Source of the DNA: Squalus acanthias | Taxonomy: Eukaryota | Assembly (NCBI GenBank): GCA_030390025.1 | Contig: CM059432.1 | Location: 99,016,001-99,080,000, forward strand | Length of the DNA: 64,000 nt | Reading direction: 5' to 3' | Part shown: piece after piece, positions 1-61,004 of the stretch | Layout of the letters: each line of letters starts with the position of its first letter | Position numbering within the stretch: the stretch's first letter is position 1 | Notes under the pieces: generated by a model | Told to the model about the DNA's origin: nothing | Seen by the model: only the letters and a program-made list of their open reading frames with translations | Database searches by the model: none | Made by a program: the position numbers and the translations under genes

Positions 1-1973
1 GCAGGGCTGCACCGCGCCGCAGGAGATACCCCCAACACAGGGTTTACAGGCAGAGGATGAGCTTCCTCAACATGAGTGAGCAGCAGTGACAAAGGAGCCT
101 GAGACTTTTGCGAGAGGTAGGGGGTGATTTTCTCAATGGGGAGCTTTTGGAGGCGGGACTCCCACTTGTCGGGTTTCAGTCCCGCCTCCATCAACTTCTG
201 GCCAACCCAGGCTATTTTCCCTTGATTGACCTTGTTAAGCCCAGCGGGCTTAGCAGGCCAATTAAGGGAAAGCCAGTTGCAGAGAACGTCAACGTATGAT
301 GTTTCATCTGTCAAAAACATTTGACAGATGAATTGTCATCGTTTGACAGCTCTATGAAGCTGTCAAACAGTGACATTCTCTGTAGTTTGATGAGGTCTTG
401 AATTCAAGACCTCATCAAACTTCTTTCTCTTACAGAATTGAGATGGTTGTTGCATCTGACAATGAAACGGCCATCTGTCATCTCCAACGCAGAGGTCCGA
501 GACTCTCCGCATACAAACCGACTGAAGCCTGCAGGAAGAAACAAAGGTACACTTTTACTAACACTTTGCACTTACCTCAGATACTCACCTCTACACCCTT
601 GCACCCAATAACTTACCTTCACAGCACACTTTTGCACCCCCCGACCCCGCAGACCCAGTACTCGCCTCGCTGACCTGGCGGGTTTCGGAGCCTTTGGGAA
701 GCCCGCACTTGTGAGGGCAAAAAGGGGATAATCCTATTTTCTGACTGTTAACTACCTGTTAACAGGCAGTTAATACGCTTTAATCCCTTCCCGCCTCCAA
801 GGGTATCGGACCCGGCGCGGGACGGCTACCCGCCTCCTGGCAAGATGGCATGGAGGTGAGTTGGGGGCGGGTTGTGCATCCGCCCCCAAATTCTGCATTT
901 TTCCCAGCAGTCCCGCCTTCATACATGCCTCCCCAGGGCTGGCAAAATCACTCCCGTAGTCGCTGACATCTGCACAATGCTGCACCAATACCTGGAGCCC
1001 AGAGGAGTGTGTGGACAATCCTTACCAGTGGCTGTCAAAGTCACCAACGCCCTAAACTTCTTTGCTTTGGGCTCCTTCCAGGGATCAGCTGCAGACATCA
1101 GCGGCATCTCCCAGTCGGCTGCACACACCTGCATCACGCAGGTTACCGATGCCCTCTTTGCAAAGTCGCACAATTACATCCACTTCTCCACGGATGAAGC
1201 AAATGTGACCGTGCATGCGGTTGGCTTTGTAAATATGGCAGGCTTCCCAAGGGTGCATGGCATCGTAGACTGCACACATGTGGCCATTAGGGCACCCCAT
1301 CACAACCCAGCTGTATTTGTTAACCGCAAGGGATTCCACTCCTTTAATGTCCAGCTGGTGTGTAACCACAGGAAGATCATCATGCATGTTTGCACAAAGT
1401 ACCCTGGCAGTTGCCATGACACCTTCATCCTGCGGCAGTCTACTGTGCCTCAGCTCTTCAATCCGCCAACGCAACTTTCCGGATGGCTACTTGGCGACAA
1501 GGGCTATCCCCTGAAAAGTGGCTCATGACACTGATGAGGAGGCCATCAAACGAGGCTGAGGAGCTGTACAATGTGAGCCACATTTCGACCAGAAGCATCA
1601 TCGAGCAAACCATCGGCTTGCTCAAAATGCGAGTCCAATGCCTCGACAGATCTGGTGGAGCCCTGTAGTATGCACCAGCCAGGGAGTCCAGAATCATCAT
1701 GGTCTGCAGTGCCCTGCACAACATCGCACAGCAGCGTGGCTTAGCGTTGCCTGAGGAACAAGTGGCTCAGCGCACAGCCTCCTCGGAAGAAGAGGACGAG
1801 GACGAGCAGGAGGACGAGAGGAGGACGAGGAGGAACATTAGGAGGAGGATGAGAGGAGGACGAGAAGCCATGCCTTGCGGAGCCGGATGTGGCCAACCCA
1901 GCAGCACTCGACCAAATTGCTGGCCATCAGGCAAGGGATGCATTCATTCATGCCAGATTCGCTTATGCTTTAA
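1..1973 (+). pseudogene. Harbinger (HARBI1-like) DDE transposase of copy A, disrupted
   Basis: Motifs [66 protein letters not shown] and an acidic tail. Broken by TGA at 87-89, the MITE at 120-955, a frameshift near 1515 and a stop at 1666-1668. Confidence 0.93.
120..955. mobile_element. Harbinger-type MITE family 1, copy 1
   Basis: TIRs GGGGGTGATTTT / AAAATCACTCCC and TSD GTA (117-119, 956-958). Removing it restores the transposase frame LRLLREV-VADIC. Confidence 0.93.
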
Positions 1974-2620
1974 CCACAGGTGGCTGGCAGATGGAGATGA
2001 ATGTCAGGACGAGCTTCTTAACATGCCATACATCATCTGTCCAATAAACGGTGCTTTCCTATCACTCTCACCACCATCATTACAAATGCAAGTAGCCCAG
2101 AGCCCTCACTGTGCAACTTCCATTTCTCAGCACATATAGGCCAAAAATTCAAATCTTTGCCATCACTTTTGTTTAATACAATCTGGATGACAAGCGGTAC
2201 TTTTTCATACAATAAAACACCCAAGTGACTACCCTTGTGAATATTTGTGTGTTAACTTCCTCTTATGAGTGTTTCTACGTGGTGCTTCCCCTGTGGCTTC
2301 AGCAGATGTAGAGGCACCTTGCTGCGCCAGCTTAGATGCCTTTGGCAGGCATCCTCTGGGTTTGGGAGCCTGGGAGGGCTCTGCAACAGTCTGCTCTTCC
2401 TGCGGCTGTGCAGGGGCTGAGACGGCCATCTCAGTTGGGTGCCGAATCTGGGGCTCTGACTGAGGGCTCCGCAGTGGCATGGTCGTGTGAGCGCTTGGAG
2501 AGGAGCCCGCACTTCCTTGTTGTCGGCCACCAACATCCCTCCCATGGGTCACCTGCACTTCACTGCTAGCAAGTGGCTTGAGAGCACCTTGTTGCACAGC
2601 AGTGGGGCCATGAGGACTCT

Positions 2621-5392
2621 GGTAGGCCAGAGGATTGGGAAATTTTTAGAGGATGACTAAAAAAATTATAAAGAGGGAGACAATAGAGTATGAGAGTAAA
2701 CTAGCAAGTAATATAAAAACAGACAGTAAGAGTTCTACAGGTATATAAAAGGGAAGAGAGTAGTTAAAGTAAACGTTGGTCCCTTAGAGGATGAGACTGG
2801 GGAATTAATAATGGGAAATAGAGGAATGGCAGAGACGCTAAACAATTATTTTGGATCGGTCTTCATGGTAGAAGACACTAAAAACATCCCAATAATAATA
2901 GATAATCAAGGGGCTATATAGAGAGGGAGGAACTTAAAACAATCTCTATCACTAGAGAAAAAGTACTAGGCAAACTAATGGGGCTAAAGGCTGACAAGTC
3001 CCCTGGACCTGATAGTCTGCATCCTAGGGTCTTAAAATAAGTGGCTGCAGAGATAGTGGATGCGTTGGTTGTAATCTATCAAAATTCCCTGGATTATGGA
3101 GAGGTCCCAGTAGATTGGAAAACCGCAAATGTAACGCCACTATTCAAGAAAGGAGGGAGACAGAAAGCAGGAAACTATAGGCCAGTTAGCCTAACATCCG
3201 TCATTGGAAAATGCTGGAATCCATTATTAAGGAGGTAATAGCAGGACATTTAGAAAATCATAAGACTATCAAGCAGAGTCAACATGATTTTATGAAAGGG
3301 AAATCGTGTTTGACAAATTTGCTAGAGTTATTTGAGGATGTAACAAACAGGGTGGATAAAGGGGAACCAGTAGATGTAGTGTATTTGGATTTCCAGAAGG
3401 CGTTCGATAACGTGCCACATAAAAGATTATTGCACAAGATAAGAGCGCATGGGGTTGGGGGTAATATATTGGCATGGATAGGGGATTGGCTAACTAACAG
3501 AAAACAGAGAGTCTGCATAAATGGGTCATTTTCCAGTTGGCAATCAGTAACTAGTGGGGTGCCACAGGGATCAGTGCTGGGGCCTCAACTATTTGCAATC
3601 TATATTAATAGTTAATAATTTGAATGAAGGGACCGAGTGTACTGTAGCCAAATTTGCTGATGATACAAAGATAGGTGGGTTAGCAAGTTGTGAGGAGATA
3701 ACACAAAGGGTTGGATTTTGTCAATGGGGACGTGATGGAGGCGGGACTCCCACTTTTGGGTTGTAGTCCCACCTCCATTGACTTGTGGCCAACCCATTGT
3801 ATTTTCCCTTGATTGACCTTGTTAAGCCCGCCCAGCTTGGATACAGGTGACGTCAGCCATTGAAATTTCATCTGTCAAGAGCTTTTGAAATTTCAACATT
3901 TGACAGCTCTGTGAAGCTGTCAAACACTGACAATATGATTTCTAACGTGAGTCCCTGTACTTAGACTCAGTTAGAAATCAATCCAGCACAGAAAGCAGAG
4001 ACTGCAGCTTTTGACAGCTCCGCTGCCATTCTGCTTTCTGTGCCGGTGAGCTGAGGGACTCCCGAGAACTGAAGGAAGGAAGCCTGCAGGACAAAGTTAA
4101 GGTAAGTACAAGTTCTTAAAACACTTTACACACACCAAACACACTTACCTCTGCACTCATGCACCGATCACTCACCTGCACAACAGACATCTCGACCCCT
4201 CCAAGCCCTCCAGACCGACGGTCTGCCTCGCTAAATCGGCGTGGTTCGGACCTGTCGGGAAGCCCTTCAGGGCTAAAAATAGGGATTAGGCAAAAAACTG
4301 CCTGTTAACCACCTGTTAACAGGCAGTTTATTGGCACTAATCCCCTTCCCACCTCGGGGAGGCAGGTCCCAGCACAGGTCGGGTACCCGCCTCCTGTAAA
4401 ACTGGCATGGAGGCGGGTTGGGGGCGGGATGGGTTCGGGACCCCCGAATCTGCTATTTTCCCACCCCATACGCCTCCAAACCCGCCTCCACGGGCCAGTG
4501 AAAATTGAGCCCAAAGAGTCTGCAAAGGGATATAGATAGGTTAAGTGAGTGGGCAAAAATTTGGCAGATGGAGTATAATGTGGAAAAATATGAGGTTATC
4601 CACTTTGGAAGGAAGAATAAAAAAGCAAATTATTATTTAAATGGAGTGAGACTACAAAATACTGCGGTACAAAGGGATCTGGGGGTCCTAGTACATGAAA
4701 CACAAAAACTTAGCATGCAGGTACAGCAAGTAATTAGGAAGGCTAATGGAATGTTGGCCTTTATTGCAAGGGGTATGGAGTATAAAAGTAGGGAAGTTTT
4801 GATGCAACTTTACAGGGCGCTGGTGAGACCGCACCTGGAGTACTGCGTACAGTTTTGGTCTCCATATTTAAGGAAGGATATACTTGCATTGGAGGCAGTG
4901 CAGAGAAGGTTCACTCGATTGATTCCTGGGATGAAGTGGTTGACGTATGACGAAAGGTTGAGCAGGTTGGGCCTATACTCATTGGAGTTTAGAAGAATGA
5001 GAGGTGATCTTATTGAAACATTTAAGATTCTGAGGGGGATTGACAGGGTGGATGCTGAGAGGATGTTTCCCTAGTGGGGGTATCTAGAACTAGGGGGCAG
5101 AGCTTCAGAATAAGGGGTCGCCCATTTAAGACGGAGATGAGGAGTAATTTCTTCTCTCAGATGGTCATGAATCTTTGGAATTCTCTACGCCAGAGAGCTG
5201 TGGAGGCGGAGTCATAGAATATATTCAAGGCGGAGATTGACAGACATTTGAACTACAAGGGAGTCAAGGGGTATGGGGAGAGAGCGGGAAAGTGGTGTTG
5301 AGGCCAAGATTGGATCAGCCATGATCTTATTAAATGGCGGAACAGGCTCGAGGGGTCGATTGGCCTACTCCTGCTCCTGTTTCTTCTGTCTC
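2621..5392 (+). mobile_element. 5'-truncated CR1 (HER1-like) LINE, RT region pseudogenised
   Basis: [50 protein letters not shown] and the CR1 3' UTR (GGCCTACTCCTGCTCC). Inserted in Myb exon 3 and interrupted by the MITE at 3708-4512. Confidence 0.93.
3708..4512. mobile_element. Harbinger-type MITE family 2, copy 1
   Basis: TIRs GGGTTGGATTTT / AAAATTGAGCCC and TSD AAA (3705-3707, 4513-4515). Splits the CR1 RT just after FADD. Confidence 0.9.
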
Positions 5393-7720: not shown

Positions 7721-8527
7721 AATTATTGTTATTTATACAAGCACTATTAAAATGTTATTAGTATTTTCTGCACTCTAATGCAAAATTGTTTGTTCTATTT
7801 AGTTGCACCATGTTATGATGTGCTGTTAATTTAAATACATAACTTTTATTGTGCAGAAGAAACTGCTACACATTTGCACATGGTTCTGGTTAGACATTTT
7901 CGTGATGCCAAGAAGGATTGGTCAAGTGCAATGTTGTGGATCCAAAGCCATTACCCAGGTTGTTAGGTTTTCATAAATGTTAATTAGAAATCTTAGCAAG
8001 TGTCAGAAAAGTCTTGCTGGTCTCTTGCCCCATTGGAAATACTTTTTGTTGTTCTTCCTAGTTTAGGGCAATGTGCTTAATCAGTAGAGTTAAAGATGAC
8101 TTTCAGATGATAGTTATGTTCTAATGTAAAATAACTAGAGATCGTAGCTTATAAAATATTTCATAAATCACAGCCATGAATTGATTTAAAGAGTATTATT
8201 TGCGGCAAGTTTTCCTGTGAGACCAATAACGGTTCTTCAAATTCAGCTTAGTTGAATGTTGAATTATTTAACACTGATAAAATATTAAGTGACGTTCTAA
8301 TAGTAGACGTCTAGTACATGTGAGTATTATGGGAAACTCCTGAAAATCAATGTGCAAAATAATTTACTCACCTGTTAACAAATTTATTCTTTTTTATTGC
8401 AATAACAAAATTACATTTTTTTAAATCATGCTTTTTTCAACCACACATATACCTAAAGTGAATTTCATGCAATGATTCAAGAACTTTAACATATAAAACA
8501 ATTAATCCATGAAATTTTTGTATCTAT

Positions 8528-9373
8528 GGGCGCGATTTTGCCAGTCCTGGGGAGGCGGGTATGGAGGCGGGACTGCTGGGAAAAAGACAGAATTTGGGGG
8601 CGGGTACCCATCCCGCCCCCAACCCTGCCTCCGTGCCATCTTCCCAGGAGGCGGGTACCCGACCCGCGCCGAGTCCCGTCTCCTTGGAGGCGGGAAGGGA
8701 TTACAGCCACTTAACTGCCTGTTAACAGGTAGTTAACAGGCAGATAAGAGGATTATCCCCATTTTACCCACAAAAGTGCGGGCTTCCTGAAGGTTGTGGA
8801 TCCCGCCAGGGTCACCGAGGCGAGTAGTGGGTCTGCGGGGGTCTGCGGGGTGCAAAAGTGCTGCTGTGAAGGTAAGTGATGGGTGCAGTGTGGAGAGGTG
8901 AGTATGTGAGGTAAGTGGAAAGTGTTAGAAAAAGTTTACTTACCTTTGTTTCTTCCTGCAGGCTTCAATCGTTGGGTATGCGGAGAGTCTCGCACCTCCG
9001 CGGCAGAGATGACAGAAGGCTGCTGCATTCTCCAATGCAACAACCATCTAATTTCTGCAAAAGAAAGCGGTTTGATGAGTCTTGAATTCAAGAACTCATC
9101 AAACTACAGAGAATGTCAGTGTTTGACAGCTTCACAGAGCTGTCAAACGATGACAATTCATCTGTCAAAAATTTTTCACAGATGAAACGTCATACGCTGA
9201 CATTCTCTGTAACTGGCTTTCCCTTAATTGGCCTGCTAAACCCGCTGGGCGGGCTTAACAAGGTCAATCAAGGGAAAATAGCGTGGGTTGGCCACAAATT
9301 GATGGAGGCGGGACATCAACCCGACAAGCAGCAGTCCCGCCTCCAACGCACCCCCATTGGCAAGATCACGCCC
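8528..9373. mobile_element. MITE family 1, copy 2 (inverted relative to copy 1)
   Basis: Reverse-complement homology to 120-955 along its length. Ends GGGCGCGATTTTG / CAAGATCACGCCC. Confidence 0.92.
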
Positions 9374-31604: not shown

Positions 31605-33110
31605 TCCCTTCAATCCCTAGTTGTCTTTGAGCAGATAGGGGTGAGACTTCTTCTTGAACCGCTGCAATCCACATGATGAAGGTACTCCCATAGTACTGTT
31701 AGGTAGGGAGTTCCAGGATTTTGACCCAGCGAAGGTAAAAGAATGATGATATATGTCCAAGTCAGGATGGTGTGTGACTTGGAGCTGAATTTGGAGATGA
31801 TGGTGTTCCCCTGCACCTGCTGTCCTTTGGGAGATGCTGTCAAAGAAGCCTTGGTGAGTTGCTGCAGTGCATCCTGTAGATAGTACAAACTGCAGCCATG
31901 GTGCAACAGTGGTGGAGGGAGTGATGGTTAAGGTGGTGGGTGGGCTGCCAATTAAATGGATTGCTTTGTCCTGGATGGTGTCGAGCTTCTTGAGTGCTGT
32001 TGCTGCAGCTGCACTCATCCAGGCAAGTGAAGAGTATTCCATCACACTCCTGACTTGTGCCTTGTAGATGGCGGAAAGGCTTTGGGGCGTCAGGAAATAA
32101 GACACTCACCGCAGAATACCTAGCCTCTGACCTGCTCTAGCAGCCACAATATTTATGTGGCTGGTCTAGTTGAATTTCTGGTCACTGGTAACTCCCAGGA
32201 TGTTGATGGTGAGGGATTTGGCGATGGTAATGGCCCAAAAATTAGTGCTGCTACGCGAGAGTACGCACTGCGTACTCTCGCGTATTCTGTCTCCAATTGC
32301 CGGTTTTCTGCATGCACTGCGCATGCGCTGAAAACCGGCACTTGGTGAATGGAAAAGGGGGCGGTTCCTAGGTGAACCGCGTGCACGCTACAGGCTGCGC
32401 GCATGCAGTGCACTTAGTGGTTTCAACGCGCAGGTAAGTATGGAAGATTTTACACATAAAAAAAGGAGGAGTAAGACCCACTTTTAACAAGGTAAGTAAT
32501 GAATTAAGTATTATTTTGAATTTTTTTTAACAGGTATATCTTTTTTAGAGACTTTAAAGACAGGTAAGTTTATTTTTATAACTTTTTAAAAGATTTTAAA
32601 TTTTTTCAAAAATTTTATTTTTTATTTAAAATGGTTAATTTATTTAACTATACTTATTTTATTAATGTGATGGTTTTTTTTTAAATTTAATTGAGGTTTA
32701 GCTGTTCTTTTGGGGGGGTATAGATTCATAGCTTTCACAGCACTTATGTGAAAGTTATGAATGGAAGATGGTGTGCTGCCATTGGCTCTAACTGAGTCAC
32801 GTGATCCCACAGCTCGCACGAATTAACTACGCCTGTGGGATACGCAAGCCCAGCACAGCAGCTGTCCAGAACATCAAGTTCGTGCGAGCTGGAACTGAAA
32901 AAGCCAACGCGCAGTGAGAGATCGCGGGGAAGCCTTACCCTCGCACGAAGGCTTCCTCACGAATTTTTGGGCCATTGTCATTGACTGTCAAAGGGAGGTA
33001 GTTAGACTCTTTCTTGTTGGAGTTGGTTATTGCCTGACAATTGTGTGCACAAATGTTACTTGCCACATATATCAGCCCAAGTCTGGAGTTTGCAGCATGC
33101 GGGCATGAAT
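31605..33110 (-). mobile_element. LINE-B 3' fragment, interrupted by MITE family 3
   Basis: LTPQSLSAIYKAQVRSVMEYS...KLDTIQDKA on -. Confidence 0.85.
32232..32973. mobile_element. Harbinger-type MITE family 3, copy 1
   Basis: TIRs GGCCCAAAAATT / AATTTTTGGGCC, flanks AAT/ATT. Inverted homologue at 48183-48925. Confidence 0.9.
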
Positions 33111-36944: not shown

Positions 36945-39432
36945 CTACAAAGCTTTACTCTTCCTTGTCCTACTGCTCCTACATGCTGCAACCCCTATGG
37001 CTTCAGCAAAGGTAGAGGCAGGCTGCTCAGATCCCTGCTCTGATCATTGAGATTCTCTTGGCTAATGACCTCTCGGTGTTGGATCTCGTGAGGGCTTCGT
37101 CAAAGACTGCTCCACCTGCACCTATATAGGGGCAGACTCGGCTATCGGGAGGGACATGAGGCAACATGTCAGGTACTGGCGGAACAGGGGACAATGGGTG
37201 AGAAATGGGAGCACTTTGAGTGGAGTTCCCACTTCCATGTCCCCTTTCGCCATCATCCCTCTCATGAGCCAATAGCACTTCACTCCTACCACTTAGTTAG
37301 AGAGTACCTTGGTGCAGATCAGTGACATCCTGAAAGACTAAAGTAAAGGCACCAGACATGTTGGCATCCAGAGTCTGCATGGCCGTGGTCAAGGCATGCA
37401 TGGACTCATTTGATTGCCATGATTGATCCACGGAGTTGGCCACTCTATCCATGGAAGAAGACATCCTCACAATGCCAGGCGACATCAACCCACTCATGCT
37501 TGAGCTGGACTCCTCCATTCTCTCTGCAATCATGGATAGCGTGTGTGGAAGGCCTGTCAGTACATCTCAGATTTTATGCGGCCCTTCAATGATTACCCTT
37601 TTCATTGATGGTCCCCAGGGTACAGCATCTGTGTCTAGCTGACCAGTGCTTGGAGAGTGCTGGGCCCACCAATGCAGACTCTCCACAGGTGTCCCTACTA
37701 GTACTGTCACTTGTGAACTGTGAGTCACCAGGTGAAATCCCAACTACCTGTCTAACTGGATCCACCGAAGTGCAAGTATCTGAGCTGGTGCATGAGTCCT
37801 GTGAAGGTGCACCCTCAGATAGAATCAGCTCCTCTGAGGATTCGTCGTCTGTGAGATTCGCCAACTGCAGCTGTGCGCATGAAGGCCCTGGCAGAAAGAT
37901 AAGGGCCAAAAAATTCGGCCCTTCCCGCGTGAGTACACAGTGTGTACTCACCCATATTGCTTCCCGAAGTGCCGGTTTCCTGCATGCACTGCGCATGCAC
38001 GGGAAACCGGAACTTCCGGTATGGTGAAGGGGGCGGTTCCTAGGTGAACCGCGTGCGTGGTAGAGGCTGTGCGCACGCAGCACACTTAGATTTTTTTTCA
38101 GGTTTCTACGCGAGGGTAAGTATTGAAGATACTACGCTAATAAAAAGGAGGCGTAAGACCCCTTTTGAACAAGGTAAGTGGTTAATTAAGTATAATTTTA
38201 AATTTTTTTCAACAGGTTTATCTTTTTTAGATACTTTAAAGAAAGGTAAGTTTATTTTTATAACTTTTAAAAAGTCTTTTAATTTTTTCAAAAATTTAAA
38301 TTTTTGTTTAAAGTGGTTAATTTATTTAACTATAGTTATTTTATAAACGTGATGGTTTTTAAAAAAAATATTTTAAGTTTAGCTGTTCTTTTGGGGCCGA
38401 TTTCAATTCACAGATTTGACAGGTCTCCTGTCAAATCTATGAATGAAAGATGGTCTGCTGCCATTGGCTCTCCATGGGCCACGTGATCCCAGGGGTCGCA
38501 TCGCACTAACTGCGCCCCTGGAACATGCAAGCACTGCGCGCCGGCTCTTGGGAGAGGCCCAGGACCCGAAGTTCCCGTGGGCCCAAAACACAACAGCAGG
38601 CGCGGTGGGTAAGAGCGCGCGCGATCCTTACCCACGCGGCAAGCTGGACATGCAAATTTCTGGGCCAAGATATGAACGAGTACTGGCAAGGTAAAAATGT
38701 TGTAACTTATCATTATGAAGATGATGATATTTCATTCGCTGTTGAAACCAAGTCAACATGACTGAGTATTGTATGACATGTGGGTTGCTGATATTTAAAT
38801 CGGTCACCAGGTAGCTGGGAGACCCCCATCTCCCCATCTCCAATGGTCAGGAACACCGAAACACCACTAATCTCCAACTCTTCCTCCTCTGTAGTTATCA
38901 GCTGTGAGATCTGTGGAGGACCACCTCCAGTCTTCTTCCTCTCCCTTGTGTTCTGCACTCTCTTCTCCAGGGAAAGAACTGACCTATGAGTGCATTTGGT
39001 GAGGGTGACTTTCAGGGAGAGGAATCAAATTGATAAGGATCAGGGTGAATGGCAGTGGTGGATGGATAGATGGGGATGTAAGGAAGTGCATGGAAAGAGA
39101 ACGATGGTTCGGGTGATGCACACATCAGGACGTAGGTGAGTATGCAACTGTACTCACCTTTCCTGACCTGGTTAGGTTATTCAAGCACTTCCTGCACTGA
39201 ATCAAGGAACGTGGCACAATGCTCCTGCTGCTGCCCTCCTCGGCCACCTCCAGCTGCTCACAGCAACTATATATGTAGATATACCAAGAATTTCCTTCTT
39301 TGTTGCACCAGCAGGTTACTTCCTCCCATTGCTGGGAAAGAGTATCTCTTTACGAACCCTCATTGCACCCAGCAGTACATCAAACAATGCATCACTAAAT
39401 TGAGGCGCAGCCCTTGACCATCCTGAATCCAT
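36945..39432 (-). pseudogene. Myb/SANT-like gene of Harbinger F (3 exons)
   Basis: Exon 1 39432-39158 (MDSGWSRAAPQFSD...QCRKCLNNLTRSGK|GTGAGT). Exon 2 ~38967-38808 (RERKKTGGGPP). Exon 3 from 37877. A MITE sits in intron 2. Confidence 0.82.
37894..38666. mobile_element. MITE family 3, copy 2
   Basis: Ends GGCCAAAAAATT / AATTTCTGGGCC and TSD AAG. Homologous to 32232-32973. Confidence 0.9.
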
Positions 39433-44417: not shown

Positions 44418-45161
44418 GGGCCGTATATTCCGATGCCTACGGGTGTGTACGAGTTGTGTACACACCCGTAGGGACATCGGAAATGCCGGTTTCAGGCATG
44501 CGAAGTGCATGCGCTGAAAACCAGCATTTCCGATCTGTCAATCTACGTCTGCCCTACAGAAGGGCCTCTGTGGGCGGATAGTTCTGCTTTCTGGAGAACC
44601 TCCGCCCGCTGAAAACCCTTAGAAATCTTACGCCTGGTAAAAACAGGCGTAAGGCCTGCTTTTACCAGTATAAGAGTTGAAAAAAAGTTTTTAAAAAACC
44701 ATTTTCACTCATTTATCATTTAAAAATACTTTTAAAAAAGGTAAGTTTATTTTTAGCCCCGTAAAAAACTTTAATTATTTTTTTCAAAAATTAAATTTTT
44801 GTTTAAAATATTTAATTTATTGTAATTTGAACTCATTTTAAAAAAGTGATGGTTTTTAAAAAATGTATTTAATGTTTTACTGTGTTTTTGGGGTGATCTC
44901 CATTCATATATTTGACAGGTCTATCTGTCAAGTGTATGAAGGGAGATTCCTTTCGCCTATTGGCTCCCCATGGCCCACGTGATCCCAGGGACGCTTGCGA
45001 ACCACATGCACCTCTGGGATACGTGGGCCCTGCGCATTTCGAGTTTGGAGAGGCCCAGGAACGGAAGTATACGCACCTCGGGAGCCCTCAGGTAAGTTCG
45101 TAGATTTTTCCAGATCGGAAGCCTCCGCACGCAGGAAGCCTCCGATCGGAAAATATAGCCC
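44418..45161. mobile_element. MITE related to family 3
   Basis: Ends GGGCCGTATATTCCGAT / ATCGGAAAATATAGCCC. Shares the AT-rich core and CCATGGCCCACGTGATCCCAGGG with 37894-38666. Confidence 0.8.
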
Positions 45162-46205: not shown

Positions 46206-47105
46206 AGTTTTCGCATATTATAAATAGGCTCTTGCCTGAAAAGCCCTGGTGAAGGCCCCAAGGAAAATGGCAATGGAAGGATCTAGAACGGAAGCGGGAA
46301 CAGGGTATTAAGTTCTGCACCACAATTTTCAGGGTGCTACTGCCCTGTTCCCACTCGGGTCGGAGTCTCAAAATTGGAGCCTAAGGGGGTAATTTTAACC
46401 TAAATCATGGGAAAGCCACTGGATTGGGTGGAATATCGGTTTTACACCCCACCCAATATTAGTCTCCATTGACTTCAATGGGGAGTAAAATCGAATGGGG
46501 TGTAAAATCAGCATTGCACCCAATCCCATCAGTTTCCCGACGGGTGGGTTTAGGTAAAAATATCTGCTAAATTTCTGCCATGAGCTGTAATTGGATTGGT
46601 AAGTTTTCATCACTTCAAAGCCAGTACACACTGTGCACTGGAAACTCAAAATCTCTTCGGTGCCCTAAAACTGACATAGCCTATGTCAGTTTTCGCATAT
46701 TATAAATAGGCTCTTGCCTGAAAAGCCCTGGTGAAGGCCCCAAGGAAAATGGCAATGGAAGGATCTAGAACGGAAGCGGGAACAGGGTATTAAGTTCTGC
46801 ACCACAATTTTCAGGGTGCTACTGCCCTGTTCCCACTCGGGTCGGAGTCTCAAAATTGGAGCCTAAGGGGGTAATTTTAACCTAAATCATGGGAAAGCCA
46901 CTGGATTGGGTGGAATATCGGTTTTACACCCCACCCAATATTAGTCTCCATTGACTTCAATGGGGAGTAAAATCGAATGGGGTGTAAAATCAGCATTGCA
47001 CCCAATCCCATCAGTTTCCCGACGGGTGGGTTTAGGTAAAAATATCTGCTAAATTTCTGCCATGAGCTGTAATTGGATTGGTAAGTTTTCATCACTTCAA
47101 AGCCA
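46206..47105 (+). repeat. 418-bp direct duplication with 64-bp spacer
   Basis: 46206-46623 appears identical to 46688-47105. Confidence 0.92.
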
Positions 47106-48182: not shown

Positions 48183-48925
48183 GGCCCAGAAATTGATCTC
48201 GCTCTGTTCCCGCGGGGGTAAGCCTTCCCCGCGATGTCTCACATCGCTTATGCTTTTTCAGATCCAGCTCGCACGAACTTGATGTTCCAGACATCAGCTG
48301 TGCTGGGCTTGCGTATCCCAGCGGCGTAGTGAATTCGTGCGAGCTGTGGGATCACGTGACTCAGTTAGAGCCAATGGCAGCACACCATCTTCCATTCATA
48401 AGTCTCACAGCATGGCTGTGAAATCTATGAATCTTACACCCCCCCAAAATAATAGCTAAACCTCAATTAAATTTAAAAAAAAAACCATCACATTAATAAA
48501 ATAAGTATAGTTAATTAAATTAACCATTTTAAATAAAAAATTAAATTTTTGAAAAAATTTAAAATCTTTTAAAAAGTTATAAAAATAAACTTACCTGTCT
48601 TTAAAGTCTCTAAAAAATATATACCTGTAAAAAAAATTCAAAAAAATACTTAATTCACTACTTACCTTCTTAAAAGCGGGTCTTACTCCTCCTTTTTACA
48701 TTTCCAAAATCTTCCCTACTTACCTGCGCGTCCAAAGCATGAAGTGCACAGCGTGCGCGCAGCCTGTAGCGCGCACGCGATGCACCCAGGCCCCGCCCCC
48801 TTTTCAGAAGAGCAATTGCCGGTTTTCAGCGCATGCGCAGGGCATGCAGAAAACCGGCAATTGGAGTGGGAATACGCGAGAGTACGCAGTGCGTACTCTC
48901 GCGTCCCGGGATCAATTTTCGGCCC
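48183..48925. mobile_element. MITE family 3, copy 3 (inverted)
   Basis: Ends GGCCCAGAAATT / AATTTTCGGCCC and TSD ATT. Reverse complement of 32232-32973. Confidence 0.9.
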
Positions 48926-49109
48926 ATTATTTCTGAAGGGAAAATACAATTAGGCGTCATTTGATTTGGTTTGTTAGATGCTTTATTATGCAATAGGTCA
49001 AACAGTTAAAACACAAGGAGCATGCATACACTAGTCCACTTGGGGGGATCCTTACTTAATACAGAAAAGTAAAGTTGCTTTGCCATTTGTCCTGCTGAAC
49101 TTGTAGAGT

Positions 49110-53491: not shown

Positions 53492-54246
53492 GGGGGCGAT
53501 TTTGCCAGCCCTGGGGAGGCGGGTATGGAGGCGGGTCTGCCGGGAAAATGGCAGAATTTGGGGGTGGCTGCCCAACCTGCCCCCAATCCGCCTCCATGCC
53601 ATCTTCCTAGGAGGCGGGTAGCCATCCCGCGCTGGGTCATGTCTCCTTGGATGTGGGAAGGGATTAAAGCCTATTAACTGCCTGTTAACAGGTAGTTAAC
53701 AGGCAGAAAATAGGATCATCCCCTTTTTGCCCTCACAAGTGCGGGCATCCCGAAGGCTCCGAAACCCGCCAGGTCAGCGAGGCGAGTAGGGGGTCTGCGG
53801 GGTGCAAAAGTGTGGTGTGAAGGTAAGTGATGGGTGCAAGAGTGGAGAGGTGAGTATCTGAGGTAAGTGCAAAGTGTTATTAAAAGTGTACTTACCTTTG
53901 TTTCTTCCTGCAGGCTTCAGTTGATGTGTATGCGGAGAGTCTTGGACCTCCGCATTGGGAATGACAGGTGGCCTTTGCATTCACAGATGCAACAACCATC
54001 TCATTTCTGTAAAAGAAAGAAGTTTGATGGGGTCTTGTATTAAATTTTTTTGACATGAAACGTCATACGTTGACGTTCTCTGCAACCGGCTTTTCCTTAA
54101 TTGGCCTGCTAAACCCGCTGGGCGGGCTTAACAAGGTCAATCAAGGGAAAATAGCATGGGTTCGCCAGAAGTTGTTGGAGGCGGGACTGAAACCCGACAA
54201 GTGGGAGTCCCACCTCCAAAAGCTCCCCATTGACAAAATTACCCCC
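53492..54246. mobile_element. MITE family 1, copy 3 (internal deletion)
   Basis: TIRs GGGGGCGATTTTG / CAAAATTACCCCC and TSD TAA. Homologous to 8528-9373. Confidence 0.93.
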
Positions 54247-55454
54247 TAAGAGAACAAATACAAAGTGCTGGATTTTCAATGACCCGTGGAGTCGGGTTTG
54301 GAGGCGTGTGGGGGGTTAAAGTTGCAGATTCGGGGGTCCCGACCCCATCCCGCCTCCAACCCGCCTCCATGCCAGTTTCGCTGGCAGCGGGTACCCGACC
54401 TTTGCTGGGACCCGACTCCCCGGCGGGAAGGGATTAGTGATAATTAACTACCTGTTAACAGGTAGTTAACAGGCAGTTTTTTGGATAATCCCTATTTTAA
54501 AAGGTGAAATGTGGGCTTCCCGACAGGTGGCAACCATGCCAAGTTATCGGGGCGGACCGTGGGTCTGCAGGGGTTGGAGGGGTCGATATGTCCGGTGGGC
54601 AGGTGAGTGATGGGTGCATGTGTGCAGAGGTAAGTGTGTAAGGTAAGTGCTAAGGGCTGGATTTTGAATGACCCTTGGAGTTGGGTTTGGAGGCGTGTGG
54701 GGGGTTAAATTTGCGGGGTCGGGGGTCCCGACCCCATCACGACTCCATCCCGCCTCCACGCAATTTTGACAAAATCAGTCGCGGGGGTTCCCAACTCCGT
54801 CCCGCCTCCAAGAGGCGGGAGATGCCAAAAAAGCCCTTAACAAGCCCTAAATTGGCTCTGTAATGCCATTTTGAAACGTTTTAGCTAGTTTAGCCCTTTT
54901 CCCACGTGAAGTACGCCTGATGTGAAACACTCCAGTGAAACCTGGCGGGAGCACAAGTGGATAGCTGACTATCAGCTGCAGGTCCACTATTACAACAGAG
55001 ATGTGATGAAGGTAGTAGTAGTATTAGGTCTGAAAGTTGCCTCAGATGCTGTTGCATTGAATGTCTTCAGAGACTGAATGGCATTTGCTGTGAGAGGACT
55101 TGGATGCAAAAAAAATTCTCTCTCTCTCTCTCTCACCTACATTTTGCATCCAGGTCCACTCACATGAAAAGCCAGGCAGGTCCTCTCTCACCAACAGCCA
55201 GACAGTCTCTGACAGCATAAGAACATAAGAACATAAGAAATAGGAGCAGGAGTAGGCCAATCGGCCCCTCGAGCCTGCTCCGCCATTCAATAAGATCATG
55301 GCTGATCTGATCCTAACCGCCAATCTACAATCTATCACAGAACCATCTCCTGCATCTAACAGAATTGCACACACGAAATAGGAGCAGAATCAGGCTACAC
55401 AGTCCCTGGGCCCGCTCCACTAACCACAGGGCCATGACCGATCCGAACCTAGAC

Positions 55455-58406
55455 TCATGTCCAAATTCCTGCCCGCTCCCCGTAACCCTTAATGCCCTTT
55501 ACTTCTAGGAAACTGTCTATTTCTGTTTTAAATTTAATTAATGTTGTAGCTTCTACAGCTTTTTGTGGCAGCATATTCCATGGACCTACCACCCTCTGAG
55601 TGAAGTAGTTCCTCCTCATCTCAGTTTTGAAAGAGCAGCCCCTTATTCTAAGACTATGTCCCCTAGTTCTCGTCTCACCCGTCATCGGGAACATCCTCCC
55701 CGCATCCACCCGATCCAACCCCTTCACAATCTTATATGTTTCAATAAGATCGCCTCTCATTCTTCTGAACTCCAATGAGTAGAGTCCCAATCTACCCAAC
55801 CTCTCCTCATATGACCGCCCCCTCATCCCCGGGATTAACCGAGTGAACCTTTTTTGCACTGCCTCGAGAGCAAGGATGTCTTTCCTTAAGTAAGGACACC
55901 AAAACTGTATGCAGTATTCCAGGTGCGGTCTCACCAATACCTTGTACAACTGAAGCAATACCTCCCTATTTTTATATTCTATCCCCCTAGCAATGAAAGC
56001 CAACATTCCATTTGCCTTCTTAATCACTTGCTGCACCTGCATACTAACCTTTTGAGTTTCGTGCACCAGGACCCCCAGATCCCTTTGCACTTCAGTACTC
56101 TCCAGTTTCTTGCCATTAAGATAATAAATTGCTCTAGGATTTTTCCTGCCAAAGTGCATCACCTCACACTTTCCAGTGTTGTATTCCATCTGCCAAATCT
56201 CTGCCCACTTACTTAGCCTGTCTATGTCCCCTTGCAGGTTTTTTATGTCCTCCTCACTCACTACTTTCCCTCCCATCTTTGTATCATCTGCAAATTTTGA
56301 TATGTTACACTTGGTCCCTTCCTCCAAATCGTTAATATAGATTGTGAAGAGTTGGGGACCCAGCACTGACCCCTGTGGAACACCACTAGTTACTGATTGC
56401 CAGTCTGAGAATGAACCATTTATCCCAACTCTTTGCTTTCTGTTAGATAGCCAATCCTCTATCCATGCCAGAATATTACCCCCAATCCCGTGATTTTTTA
56501 CCTTAAGCAATAATCTTTTGTGTGGCACCTTGTCAAATGCCTTTTGGAAGTCTAAATACACTACGTCCACTGGTTCCCCTTTATCCACTCTATATGTTAC
56601 TTCCTCAAAGAACTCCAGCAAATTTGTCAAACATGACTTCCCCTTCGTAAAACCATGCTGACTTTGTCCTATTAAATTATGATTATCCAAATGTCCTGTT
56701 ACTGTTTCCTTAATAATGGACTCCAAAATTTTACCTACCACAGATGTTAGGCTAACCGGTCTATAGTTACCAGCCTTCTGTCTACTGCCCTTTTTAAATA
56801 AGGGTGTTACATTAGCAGTTTTCCAGTCTGCCGGGACCTTAGCGGAATCCAGGGAGTTTTGAAAAATTATTACCAATGCATCTACAATCCCTACCGCCAC
56901 TTCCTTCAAGACTCTAGGATGTAAGCCATCAGGTCCAGGTGATTTATCCGCCTTGAGTCCCATTATTTTACCGAGTACCACTTCCTTAGTGATTTTGATC
57001 GTGTTTAGCTCCTCTCCCCCTATAGCCCCCTGTTTGTCCAGTGTTGGGATATTCTTAGTGTCCTCTACTGTAAAGACTGATACAAAATATTCATTCAGTG
57101 TTTTTGCCATCTCCATATTTCCCACCATTAATTTCCCGGTCTCATCCTCTAAGGGACCAACATTTACTTTAGCCACCCTTTTTCTTTTTATATAACTATA
57201 AAAACTCTTACTATCTGTTTTTATATTTTTTGCTAATTTACTTTCATAATCTATCTTCCCTTTCTTAATCAATCTTTTTGTTATTTTTTGCTGCCTTTTA
57301 AAGTTTTCCCAATCCTCTGTCCTCCCACTAGATTTCGCTACCTTATATGCCCTTGTTTTTAGTCGAATACTATCCTTAATTTCTTTACTTAGCCACGGAT
57401 GACTGTCCTTTCTTTTACACCCTTTTCTTTTCAGTGGAATATATTTTTTTTGGAAGTTGTAAAATAACTCCTTGAATGTACACCACTGATCATGTGTCGT
57501 CTTACCCTTTAATCTATTTTCCCAATCCACTCTACTCAATTCCGCTCGCATACCTTCATAGTCTCCTTTATTCAAGCTTAGCACGCTTGTTTGAGATCCA
57601 ACCTTCTCACCCTCTAATTGAATATGGAATTCAACCATGTTATGGTCACTCATTCCAAGGGGATCCTTTACTAGGACATTTTTAATTAATCCTGTCTCGT
57701 TACACAGGACCAGATCTAAGGTTGCTTGCCCCCTGGTCGGTTCAGTTACATACTGCTCAAGAAACCCATCCCTAATACACTCAATGAACTCATCCTCAAG
57801 GCAGCCCTGCCCCATTTGATTTGTCCAATTAATATGATAGTTAAAATCCCCCATAATTATAGATGTTCCCTTATTACATGCCTCAACTATTTCCTGATTG
57901 ATACTCCGTCCAATAGAGTTGCAACTGTTCGGAGGCCTATAGACTACGCCCACTAATGTTTTTTTTCCCTTATTATTCCTTATCTCCACCCAAACTGTTT
58001 CATTATCATGATTTTTTGACCCAATATCATTACTCTGTATTACAGTGATTCCTTCCTTTATTAACATAGCCACCCCACCTCCCCTTCCTTCCTGCCTGTC
58101 CTTCCTGATCGTTAAATAACCTGGTATGTTTAATTCCCAGGCATTGTCACCCTGCAGCCATGTTTCTGTAATGGCCACAATATCATAACCATATGTAGTT
58201 ATTTGTGCCATTAACTCGTCTATTTTGTTACGAATGCTACGTGCATTCAGATAGAGAACTTTCAAATATGCTTTGTGGCACTTAGTTCCTGCTTTTTCAC
58301 TTTTTACCAGTTTACCTTTTACTCCACACACTCTGTCCCTTCCTGCCACGCTCTGATTTGTGATTCCCCTACTGCTACCTATGTCTATGACCCTCTCTGT
58401 TGTCAT
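55455..58406 (-). CDS. CR1 ORF2: APE endonuclease and reverse transcriptase (983 aa)
   Basis: Uninterrupted ORF. APE motifs YLNARS, ITETW, GDFN, SDH. RT motifs [29 protein letters not shown]. Confidence 0.96.
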   Translation of the reverse strand: MTTERVIDIGSSRGITNQSVAGRDRVCGVKGKLVKSEKAGTKCHKAYLKVLYLNARSIRNKIDELMAQITTYGYDIVAITETWLQGDNAWELNIPGYLTIRKDRQEGRGGGVAMLIKEGITVIQSNDIGSKNHDNETVWVEIRNNKGKKTLVGVVYRPPNSCNSIGRSINQEIVEACNKGTSIIMGDFNYHINWTNQMGQGCLEDEFIECIRDGFLEQYVTEPTRGQATLDLVLCNETGLIKNVLVKDPLGMSDHNMVEFHIQLEGEKVGSQTSVLSLNKGDYEGMRAELSRVDWENRLKGKTTHDQWCTFKELFYNFQKKYIPLKRKGCKRKDSHPWLSKEIKDSIRLKTRAYKVAKSSGRTEDWENFKRQQKITKRLIKKGKIDYESKLAKNIKTDSKSFYSYIKRKRVAKVNVGPLEDETGKLMVGNMEMAKTLNEYFVSVFTVEDTKNIPTLDKQGAIGGEELNTIKITKEVVLGKIMGLKADKSPGPDGLHPRVLKEVAVGIVDALVIIFQNSLDSAKVPADWKTANVTPLFKKGSRQKAGNYRPVSLTSVVGKILESIIKETVTGHLDNHNLIGQSQHGFTKGKSCLTNLLEFFEEVTYRVDKGEPVDVVYLDFQKAFDKVPHKRLLLKVKNHGIGGNILAWIEDWLSNRKQRVGINGSFSDWQSVTSGVPQGSVLGPQLFTIYINDLEEGTKCNISKFADDTKMGGKVVSEEDIKNLQGDIDRLSKWAEIWQMEYNTGKCEVMHFGRKNPRAIYYLNGKKLESTEVQRDLGVLVHETQKVSMQVQQVIKKANGMLAFIARGIEYKNREVLLQLYKVLVRPHLEYCIQFWCPYLRKDILALEAVQKRFTRLIPGMRGRSYEERLGRLGLYSLEFRRMRGDLIETYKIVKGLDRVDAGRMFPMTGETRTRGHSLRIRGCSFKTEMRRNYFTQRVVGPWNMLPQKAVEATTLIKFKTEIDSFLEVKGIKGYGERAGIWT

Positions 58407-58444
58407 TTTTATTTTTTGCTCTCTTGAAACCTCCCCCCCACTAA

Positions 58445-59401
58445 TTAGTTTAAAGCCCTCTCCACAGCCCTAGTTATTCGATTCGCCAGGACACTAGTCC
58501 CAGCACTGGCCAAGTGAAGTCCGTCCCAACGGAACAGCTCTCTCCTGCCCCAGTACTGGTGCCAGTGTCCCAAGAAGCAAAACCCATTTTTCCCACACCA
58601 GTCTTTGAGCCACGCATTCAACTCCCTGATTTTATTTACCCTAGCCAAATTTGCTCGTGGCTCAGGTAGTAATCCAGAGATTATTACCCTCGAGGTTCTG
58701 CTTTTTAATTTGGCCCCTAGCTGCTCAAACTCCCTCAGCAGAACCTCTTTCCTTGTCCTATCTATGTCATTGGTACCAACATGGACCACGACAACTGGAT
58801 CCTCCCCCTCCCACTCCAAGTTTCTCTCCAGCCCAGAGGAGATGTCCTTAACCCTGGCACCGGGCAGGCAACACAGCCTTCGGGACTCTCGCTCTTGGCT
58901 GCAAAGAACCCTATCTATCCCCCTAATGATACTATCCCCTACCACTACAACATTTCTTTTTACTCCCCCCACTTGAATGGCCCCCCTTACCACGGTGCTG
59001 TGGCCAGGTTGCTCATCCTCCCTGCAGTCCCCGCTCCTATCCACACAGGGAGTAAGAGCCTCGAACCTGTTGGACAAGAGCAAGGGCTGCGGCTCCTCCA
59101 ACACTACCTCCTGGATCCCTGTACCTGCTTCACTCGTAGTCACACCTTCCTGTCCCTGACCACGGGCTACTTTTGAATTAGTTACTCGAATTGGTGTGAC
59201 TACCTCCTGAAACACGGAGTCCAGGTAACTCTCCCCCTCCCTGATGTGTCGCAGTGTTTGAAGCTCGGACTCCAGCTCATCAACACGGAGCCGGAGTTCC
59301 TCGAGCAGCCAACACTTACTGCAAATGTGTTCACCGTGAACATCAATGGTGTCCACCAGCTCCCACATATTGCAGCAGTAACACATCACCTGCTCTCCCA
59401 T
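58445..59401 (-). CDS. CR1 ORF1: zinc finger/leucine zipper and SGNH esterase-like domain (318 aa)
   Basis: CxxC...CxxC followed by heptad LEELRLRVDELESEL, then GDSII, GTND and DGLHL blocks. This is a known CR1 ORF1 architecture. Confidence 0.93.
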   Translation of the reverse strand: MGEQVMCYCCNMWELVDTIDVHGEHICSKCWLLEELRLRVDELESELQTLRHIREGESYLDSVFQEVVTPIRVTNSKVARGQGQEGVTTSEAGTGIQEVVLEEPQPLLLSNRFEALTPCVDRSGDCREDEQPGHSTVVRGAIQVGGVKRNVVVVGDSIIRGIDRVLCSQERESRRLCCLPGARVKDISSGLERNLEWEGEDPVVVVHVGTNDIDRTRKEVLLREFEQLGAKLKSRTSRVIISGLLPEPRANLARVNKIRELNAWLKDWCGKNGFCFLGHWHQYWGRRELFRWDGLHLASAGTSVLANRITRAVERALN

Positions 59402-61004
59402 TCTATGTAATTAATTAAAAATGTATTATTTACCCTTCAGTTAATTTATGCCAGCAGTCTCTGCTACACCACAGATACCCGAGAAACTATAAAATTGAAG
59501 TTTTGTCTAAAAAAAAAGAGAAATACTCACCAACCAATCACTTACCTGCTTTCTGGTGACGTCACACTTCGATTTTTTTTTACCTCTCTCCTGCTCTCGG
59601 CTTGGTGAAAGCCTACCTGGTCGCTGCCGCCTTTTACCGCCGCCGCCTCGCCGCTGTTGCTCCACCCAGGTCCGCCGCCTCTGACATCATCAGAGGTGAC
59701 TTTCAGACTGAAACCACTAATTGGTTCTTGGGTTCCCACATACTGGAACTCAATTGCCCAATTAAGTGAAAATTCCATCATTCATCCACATTAATCTGGA
59801 GTCGGGGGCGGGGGGGAACACGAAATGCGGATGACACGACCCCAACCCGACCCCAAGACAAAATCCAGCCCTTAAGTGTGGGAAAAAGTTTTACTTACCT
59901 GAACTTCCTCCTGCAGGTGTCAGCCCTTCAGTTCTCGGGAGTCAGAAATCTCACCGGCACAGAAAGCAGAAAAGCCGTGGTCCTGTCAAAAACTGCAGCC
60001 TTCTATTTTCTGTGGTGGAATGATTTCTAACTCAGCCTGAGAGGAAGAACTCAAGTTAGAAATCATATTGTGAGTGTTTGACAGCTTCACAGAGCTGTCA
60101 AACGCTGATATTTCATCTGTCAAAAGCTCTTGACAGATGAAATGTCAATCTGTGACATCACCTGTTGCCGGGTGGCCCTTAATTGGCCTGCTGAGCCCAC
60201 TGGGCGGGCTCAACAAGGTCAATCAAGGGAAAAAACAGTGGGTTGGCCACATCTTGATGGAGGCGGGTATACAAGCCAAAATGTGGGATTCACGACACCA
60301 ACCCGACCTGAGTATCAAAATCCAGCCCAAAGATGCTAATGTGCGAACCACAATCATCATTGAGAAGATATTTGTGGTGCGAATGCAGCACCTGAGATGT
60401 TTGGGTTGGTGGATGAAGTGCACCTGCCAAGCATGAAGGACCAGCAGAAAAGCAGCCACGACAAATTTCCATCAGTTATATATTTTTTCTGTGCTGCTAA
60501 TTTACGGTAATATTCAACCCCTACCTTGTCGCGCTTCCTTAAATCATGAGATATCTGTATTGTTGCCTTACTGACATGTTATTTTGATTGCTGCATACTA
60601 ATAAAAAAAAACATTTCCTGCAATGATAGTAGTGTTTCCCTTTCAGTAGCTGACATTGTCTTTTGGCTATTAGGCCAGAGGATCCTCGGGAGTGTGTCTA
60701 TATTTGTAGATGATCCCCTGGAATGTGTTAACTAGTTGCAGGGGGACTCTGACTGCAAAAACAAATGAAAACCATTCCTCTATTCCAATGGTGTTCAGCC
60801 ATGCTCTCCGGTAATTGCACATTCCATATTTGCATTACTGAAGTTGATGGGCTTTCAACTGGTTAAGTGGCATCTTGCTGCTTGTGAGGTGTTGAAGGAT
60901 CATTATTACAAGTGCATCGTGATTGGCTGTTACATGCTCATTATTGGTAACAAGTCAATTTTTTCTGGAATTGCAAGCTGCAAAGAGGTGTGTTGCTGTG
61001 TTTT

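Follow-up and report, generated by a model that had tools for sequence, protein, structure and literature searches.

Splice-donor motifs occur far above chance, and on both strands, within a short cassette in the middle of a non-coding PIF/Harbinger-type element, one copy of which occupies positions 8528-9373 of the window (viz. the whole 64,000-nt stretch of Squalus acanthias DNA that was analysed). The consensus of this element (family 1) contains four AGGTRAGT motifs, distributed over both strands within about 100 nt, whereas 1000 dinucleotide shuffles contain 0.035 on average and never more than 1; when only the cassette was shuffled, the maximum in 5000 shuffles was 2, and the background of this motif in 1.187 Mb of gene regions is 0.085 per kb. 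The consensus of a diverged second family (family 2) contains three, versus 0.06 by shuffling. The explanation that we tentatively favour, at somewhat less than an even chance, is that the donor cluster represents promoter-proximal U1 snRNP sites that were selected in the master copies of this MITE.

The splice-signal cassette and the element carrying it

In copy 8528-9373, direct reading places the GT of donor 1 (AG/GTAAGT, the slash marking the exon/intron boundary) at 8872, that of donor 2 (AG/GTGAGT) at 8898 and that of donor 3 (AG/GTAAGT) at 8911, and these are followed by TACTTAC at 8937-8943, a pyrimidine tract, and an AG at 8960-8961. The segment ACTTACCT at 8938-8945 reads AAG/GTAAGT on the minus strand, and both the order of these signals and the perfect opposite-strand donor are as a preliminary description of this DNA had claimed. 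A GT donor, a branch point, a pyrimidine tract and an AG, viz. the signal set of a U2-type intron, are all present. However, where that description saw a complete intron of about 90 nt with three alternative donors, the candidate introns starting from donors 1, 2 and 3 measure 90, 64 and 51 nt, of which just the 90-nt length is comfortable within vertebrate intron size limits, and splicing of any of them is unsupported by the RNA results described below.

The element carrying the cassette is a non-autonomous PIF/Harbinger MITE, being short, non-coding and present at high copy number. Within 8528-9373 all open frames are shorter than 110 aa. Inverted ends of about 16 nt are seen in the 30 listed loci of family 1 (one of them truncated) and in 30 loci of family 2, and an exact 3-bp target duplication is found for 13 of the 30 family 1 copies and 19 of the 30 family 2 copies. 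Harbinger elements are characterised by 3-bp target duplications and by a transposase plus a Myb-like protein, and the inverted ends of families 1 and 2 are shorter than the 25-50 bp given for PIF/Harbinger, according to the available part of PMC9179366. An exact two-anchor pattern spanning the cassette has at least 8,498 matches in the 3.7 Gb genome (reversed control, 0), and first-look candidates genome-wide number 8,990 for family 1 and 6,221 for family 2. A transposase piece in the window matches DDE_Tnp_4.

The coordinates of the different features are listed in Table 1. With regard to the other copies in the window, the cassette at 53818-53915 is as previously described, but the same order does not fully recur in the inverted copy at 525-618, where TACTTAC is gone via a 5-nt deletion. 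The statement that family 2 keeps the motifs holds in part: donor 3 is absent from the copy at 4080-4180 and from the consensus, whereas the split copy retains it (54600-54650). The window sits in a MITE-rich stretch, with about 10 family 1 and 2 copies per 264 kb (the window plus 100 kb on each side) versus 6 per 1.187 Mb of gene regions. The family 1 copy within the Harbinger transposase frame (window 1-2650) has a TAG duplication. The stretch 54246-60329 is a nested insertion: a family 2 MITE is interrupted by a donor-less MITE, and the latter in turn by a CR1-like LINE, which lies on the minus strand at 55430-59560 and has open frames of 321 and 1004 aa. The 5' end of this LINE (59527-59550, minus) carries tandem donors, CAG/GTAAGT GATTGGTTG/GTGAGT, that resemble donors 1 and 2 of the cassette. 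A 418-nt direct repeat with 100% identity and its copies 482 nt apart is also present at 46206-47105, and it reflects either a recent duplication or an assembly artefact.

Table 1. Features of the splice-signal cassette, of the element and of its relatives in the window
Feature	Positions	Strand	Remarks
MITE family 1 copy, 846 nt, non-coding, PIF/Harbinger type	8528..9373	+	TIRs of about 16 nt and 3-bp TSD in the family
Left arm, apparently collinear with transposase-side end of longer Harbingers	8528..8860	+	TIR, GGAGGCGGG repeats, TTAAC..GTTAA palindrome at 8711-8736
Donor 1	8870..8877	+	AG/GTAAGT; GTGAGT in other subfamilies
Donor 2	8896..8903	+	AG/GTGAGT; GTAAGT in other subfamilies
Donor 3	8909..8916	+	AG/GTAAGT; absent from family 2 consensus
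Reverse donor AAG/GTAAGT	8937..8945	-	On the plus strand, suits a branch point 19 nt ahead of the AG
Pyrimidine tract and CAG, acceptor-like	8946..8961	+	Equally a purine-rich exon end before the reverse donor
Row of four to five hairpins	8977..9190	.	Kept in three subfamilies despite different sequence; no strand preference
Right arm, homologous to Myb-side end of a longer Harbinger family	9106..9373	-	CCAAT at 9227-9231, TGACG, leader hairpin
Minus-strand RNA excess, approximate span	8850..9130	-	Family-wide reads, related species
Family 1 copy inside Harbinger transposase frame	120..955	-	Reverse donor damaged
Family 1 copy with internal deletion in hairpin block	53492..54246	+	Cassette intact
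Family 2 copy	3708..4517	-	Two donors and reverse donor
Family 2 copy, left half	54256..54654	+	Split after donor 3 by nested insertions
Right half of the family 2 copy begun at 54256	59873..60329	+	Reverse donor, acceptor-like AG, right arm

Two-arm structure and the search for a longer parent

The left arm appears collinear with the transposase-side ends of longer Harbinger elements (judged by eye from an unscored alignment), its consensus has a CpG observed/expected ratio of 0.71, and it is likely the promoter of the transposase gene. About 250 nt of the right arm, including the CCAAT, TGACG and leader hairpin, can be aligned with the end of a longer family on its Myb side, and this arm likely corresponds to the promoter of the Myb gene. 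This longer family was found by pattern (10 matches, 8 of them looking like that family), and its transposase-side end is seen in one deleted copy only. The space between the arms is occupied by about 160 nt of further hairpins and by the 90-nt cassette. From this arrangement we infer that the MITE joins two inward-facing promoter ends, with the cassette at their meeting point.

The preliminary description had allowed for the motifs tracing to a native intron of the autonomous parent. No cassette was found in the longer Harbinger families sampled (sets of 30, 30 and 20 loci, 20 Myb loci, and 8 copies). The 30 intact-transposase loci belong to another TIR clade and show no match to families 1 and 2; the 30 loci of the window's transposase family have the left end alone in common with the MITE; and the cassette is lacking in 20 Myb loci and in the 8 copies of the closest longer family. 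A third family (20 loci) was considered as a template and rejected: its copy in the window has a short leader intron, but its consensus is without the donor. No sampled element matches both arms closely, although related arms were found.

If the cassette were nevertheless a passive relic, then the reverse donor and its C/A tail would be an old Myb exon 1/intron 1 junction, or a leader intron, of an unsampled parent; the plus-strand donors would be reverse complements of CACTYACC intron motifs, perhaps duplicated locally in an element rich in palindromes; and the constancy of the signals would reflect ancestry and pairing. We regard this as somewhat unlikely. It is favoured by the resemblance of the cassette minus strand to the start of Myb intron 1, which in several families is C/A-rich with CACTYACC motifs, begins with AAG/GTNAGT and contains CCCATCACTCACCT or CACTTACCTT. 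Local alignment of the cassette with Myb intron 1, compared with shuffles, gave uncorrected p values of 0.024 (family 1), 0.061 (family 2) and 0.019 (the piece at 59872), and with intron 1 of the closest family 0.025 for family 2. However, the uncorrected values were 0.17 for family 1 with the closest family, and 0.51 and 0.13 with intron 1 of the window family, and a profile search for this likeness found nothing significant. The likeness is borderline and suggestive only.

The leaders of the longer elements bear on the same question. In the intact autonomous clade there are 26 strong-donor matches in 30 leaders, which speaks for a relic, but within the same broad TIR clade as the MITE strong sense leader donors are seen in just 2 of 23 and 2 of 20 copies (in the first set 23 of 29 leaders could be anchored). 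The homology of the right arm to the closest family also ends about 160 nt short of the reverse donor. Further, in a sister MITE family an AAG/GTGAG donor is present in all 3 copies read, whereas the related longer family has it at that place in 0 of 8, which points to a gain in the MITE lineage. This sister family (about 880 nt; four loci, viz. L121, L122, L126 7645-8525 and L099) has sense donors in its left half and reverse donors in its right half, and its right arm continues into the first Myb codons. The 30 intact loci (L031-L060) lie on many contigs, are nearly identical and hold stop-free transposase frames of 385-391 aa, and their leaders carry, besides the strong donors, a GTAAGTAAGTAAGTATGTATG run. 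Judging from these frames, the intact Harbinger family may be young and possibly active.

Constancy among subfamilies and decay after insertion

The spacers had been said to differ between families while the motifs persist. Shared variants are found in 4 of 28 donor-core columns versus 42 of 94 spacer columns (p=0.004, a value that is too small, the 16 sequences being related to each other), a comparison that covers 2 consensuses and 14 copies after 2 of the 18 rows, members of the consensus subfamilies, were dropped, and that excludes +3 from the cores. The contrast thus stands for the donors, except that GATGGGTGCA, the ten letters following donor 1, is as constant as they are. Among the 100 listed rows of at least 8,498, read by eye, donors 2 and 3 vary between subfamilies mainly by A/G at +3, a restriction that is unexpected if the signals are relics. 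In the same 100 listed copies donors 2 and 3 usually have opposite +3 letters. The middle letter of TACTTAC is T, C, A or G across the listed rows, and in 5 of the 100 TACTAAC, the strongest branch-point form, takes its place. Based on the constancy of the donor cores, the alternation of A and G at +3 and the lack of the cassette in longer families, the donors look to have been selected in the lineage of the element, in agreement with what the preliminary description proposed for these non-coding elements.

The inserted copies, in contrast, are unprotected. The +1 G of donor 2 is mutated in 231 of approximately 7,950 genomic copies (2.9%, the denominator being estimated from 100 rows) and a matched spacer G in GGT context in 209 of 8,707 (2.4%), giving a ratio of 1.2 (p=0.047, for one donor and one control position and with that estimated denominator). 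A faster loss of donor GTs, as a by-eye tally of the 100 listed rows had indicated, was abandoned, the genome-wide ratio being just 1.2. Donor decay after insertion is about neutral, as a relic would also have it, and any selection acted on the master copies.

Decay this close to neutral speaks against a role for the host in the majority of copies. If the donors served the host, either as U1 pads against premature polyadenylation in introns or as marks against the silencing of intronless RNA, both of which had been put forward, then perfect U1 matches on both strands would act in either orientation; we consider such a function highly improbable. The donors in genomic copies decay at no less than the neutral rate, and the element occurs at modest density, with 6 copies across the 1.187 Mb of gene regions sampled. 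For the orientation of intronic copies the sample comprised 1.187 Mb between same-strand exons of the spectrin family, each span being assumed to be a single gene. Families 1 and 2 gave 2 sense and 4 antisense copies, and a third donor-bearing family 5 sense and 10 antisense; pooled, 7 of 21 are sense and 14 of 21 antisense, so that the check for orientation bias gave no significant result (p=0.19, an underpowered count with 6 copies of families 1 and 2). As regards silencing, HUSH acts on long single exons and protection by introns is independent of splice sites, in the part of PMC7619638 that was available, whereas the element is 846 nt.

RNA across the cassette

RNA was examined in two paired-end runs (X17 and X18) from a related species, in which the same insertion is present and about 91% identical; the reads were mapped to two copies, all copies of the family being pooled. 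In a strand control on a spectrin exon, first mates fall solely on the strand antisense to the gene, at mean depths of 3.4 and 3.5 versus 0 (few reads per run), and antisense first mates are the usual dUTP direction. Across 8881-8954 the RNA opposite to the three donors exceeds the donor-sense RNA by 13-14:1 in X18 and by 1.6-2:1 in X17, with an excess in the same direction on the second mapped copy. Relative to the rest of the element, and divided by the DNA contig depth as a rough correction, minus-strand cassette RNA is 6.6- and 7.2-fold enriched, and plus-strand RNA 0.7-fold in one run and 4.0-fold in the other. The dominant cassette RNA is therefore sense to the lone reverse donor and to the Myb-side promoter, contrary to the earlier view that the plus strand is the main intron strand. 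The minus-strand excess climbs from about 9130, which fits a start near that position, and falls between 8880 and 8845. In X18, outward RNA is also seen at both arms (minus 2-5:1 at 8511-8660, plus about 2:1 at 9177-9361), which is not seen in X17.

If the cassette were a portable intron or an exon trap, then either the 90-nt intron would be spliced or its donors would join downstream host exons in the manner of HelibatN3. The textbook succession of signals, from the donor via the branch point and pyrimidine tract to the AG, is consistent with this, as are a middle letter of TACTTAC that is tolerable for a branch point in all its forms, the appearance of TACTAAC, the enrichment of plus-strand RNA in one run and the antisense trend in introns (14 of 21, with the p value given above). 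However, in both runs the RNA depth is maximal within the proposed intron, and no donor-to-acceptor joint was found among the 15 joints listed of 117 or the 15 listed of 50, listings that are dominated by other signals and that rare splicing or a very short first exon could escape. Loose read ends at the donors are likewise not found among the few listed. The lengths from donors 2 and 3 are unfavourable as well, and the cassette sites lie 340-435 nt inside the element, away from its termini, due to which splicing at the cassette cannot remove the insertion. We therefore hold a portable exon/intron cassette, as proposed in the preliminary description, to be improbable, and its suggested check for spliced junctions turned up none among those listed. 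Splicing of the 90-nt intron probably does not take place to any large degree: the acceptor also serves as the end of the exon in front of the reverse donor, and the opposite donors are predicted to pair in either transcript.

This pairing belongs to a larger structure. The block 8850-9200 folds far better than its shuffles (z -7.7 for family 1 and -5.1 for family 2), and in all three subfamilies the reverse donor is predicted to be paired with the nearest opposite AGGTRAGT copy at a probability of 0.97-0.98. Any pair of donors on opposite strands inherently makes up an inverted repeat, due to which the bidirectional feature may be one more palindrome of this element. A search of Rfam yielded no family near its cut-off (best 24.6 bits versus a cut-off of 97), and readings as an Rfam-type RNA, a tRNA-like RNA or a miRNA were set aside as lacking Rfam support.

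If the Myb-side promoter gave rise to a structured non-coding RNA as a discrete product of about 280 nt, containing the hairpins, the donor and a U1-like anti-donor tail that masks the donor, then this would fit the observed minus-strand excess, which begins at about 9130 and has a sharp edge near 8850, the short loose ends at 8887 (median 22 and 27 nt) and, in three subfamilies, the hairpins with the predicted helix of donor and anti-donor. This is nonetheless a long shot: the opposite strand folds equally well, no Rfam family matches, the family 1 consensus is without AATAAA, the accumulation of read starts at 8847 may stem from clipping where the copy has two mismatches, and the reads are skewed towards some variants, so that few host loci could give rise to the peak. 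Three further features were tried and rejected. The strand control spoke against a plus-strand start at 8847, as which the RNA step there had first been read; a candidate Pol III terminator (8855-8858) has a longer T run upstream of it on that strand, and families 1b and 2 are without the run; and an 81-nt minus-strand intron has an AG that is absent in family 2. In an intronic repeat of the spectrin gene (L291:8026-8073) many reads jump backwards by 35-40 nt, as many as 1,750 of them in X17, probably because a related repeat that is highly expressed contains a tandem array.

Donors as putative promoter-proximal U1 sites

Returning to the explanation by promoter-proximal U1 snRNP sites, the transposase-side and Myb-side arms would act as two inward-facing promoters, each with the donor cluster behind it. 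The donors may then bind U1 snRNP in the nascent RNA, this binding would keep transcription from both promoters productive, and productive transcription could hold the copy open to the transposase and thereby raise its chance of being mobilised. In human and mouse cells, Restrictor is blocked by a strong 5' splice site near the start of a transcript, with no need for splicing, as set out in the accessible portion of PMC12211998. A literature search over titles and abstract openings of open-licence papers found none that links the transcription of non-autonomous DNA transposons to their mobility.

Other MITEs of this genome are informative in both directions. A distantly related family (32228-32975) has three perfect donors, and in a third family, the sister family described above, the donors face inward from both arms. 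However, a donor-less family (of the type at window 54654-55200) is abundant too, with 8 matches in 1.187 Mb, which indicates that donors are not needed for success and goes against the U1 sites; the predicted pairing, which would mask the reverse donor, is likewise a poor fit with U1 binding. The second MITE clade (TIR GGCCCAAAAATT), found at 32228-32975, 37900-38660, 44714-45068 and 48212-48929, carries three co-oriented AG/GTAAGT donors in AT-rich DNA, and over its first 116 nt it matches the autonomous family with intact transposases. A broader version, in which the non-coding DNA transposons of this genome would repeatedly have evolved strong U1 sites behind their own promoters, which would let master copies evade early termination and remain transcribed and mobile, with a hairpin RNA of about 280 nt whose U1-like tail masks the donor in the present case, seems unlikely to us. 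If it were true, then there would be selection on RNA-processing signals in elements that lack an RNA step.

Comparison with known systems

MITEs that move by cut and paste code for nothing and are mobilised as DNA, and selected splice signals are unexpected in them; among the non-autonomous PIF/Harbinger elements are the Tourist-like MITEs such as mPing. If the signals described here are mere relics, then the element is an ordinary Harbinger MITE. If, however, the donors are kept for U1-dependent transcription, then a rule that separates productive from attenuated transcription would be tied to the copy-number success of a transposon. In addition, thousands of cassettes combining a putative promoter with donors constitute raw material for new first exons.

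Introner elements, reportedly the subject of Huff et al. 2016, are DNA transposons that also bear splice signals, but they have these at the element ends and are removed as a whole from the host RNA. The cassette sites are instead located mid-element and 90 nt apart, and the element is thus no introner. For Harbinger MITEs, a donor cassette was not found described in titles and abstract openings of open-licence papers, and the part of PMC10901741 available does not cover such cassettes. The present analysis covered the RNA strand, the neutral decay and the Myb-side homology of a donor-bearing Harbinger MITE.

The bat Helitron HelibatN3 carries the NUBPL promoter and a splice donor, and its splicing into host exons has been demonstrated (PMC4778049, in the portion accessible). 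Like the present element it is non-autonomous, belongs to the DNA transposons, has a donor behind promoter-like DNA and has reached many copies, but HelibatN3 captured both promoter and donor from a host gene, whereas here the arms are transposon-derived, the donors are multiple and on both strands, and splicing is not seen. The likeness to the Restrictor/U1 system lies in a strong 5' splice site within the first stretch of a transcript, which would let an unspliced non-coding transcript escape attenuation (PMC12211998, as far as its text was available). That system, however, was described for human and mouse reporters and genes and not for transposons or for this lineage, and the mechanism is only inferred for the present element. 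Compared with the known PIF/Harbinger MITEs, the distinguishing characteristics of this element are that both putative promoter arms, strong donors on both strands and the row of hairpins have been retained together.
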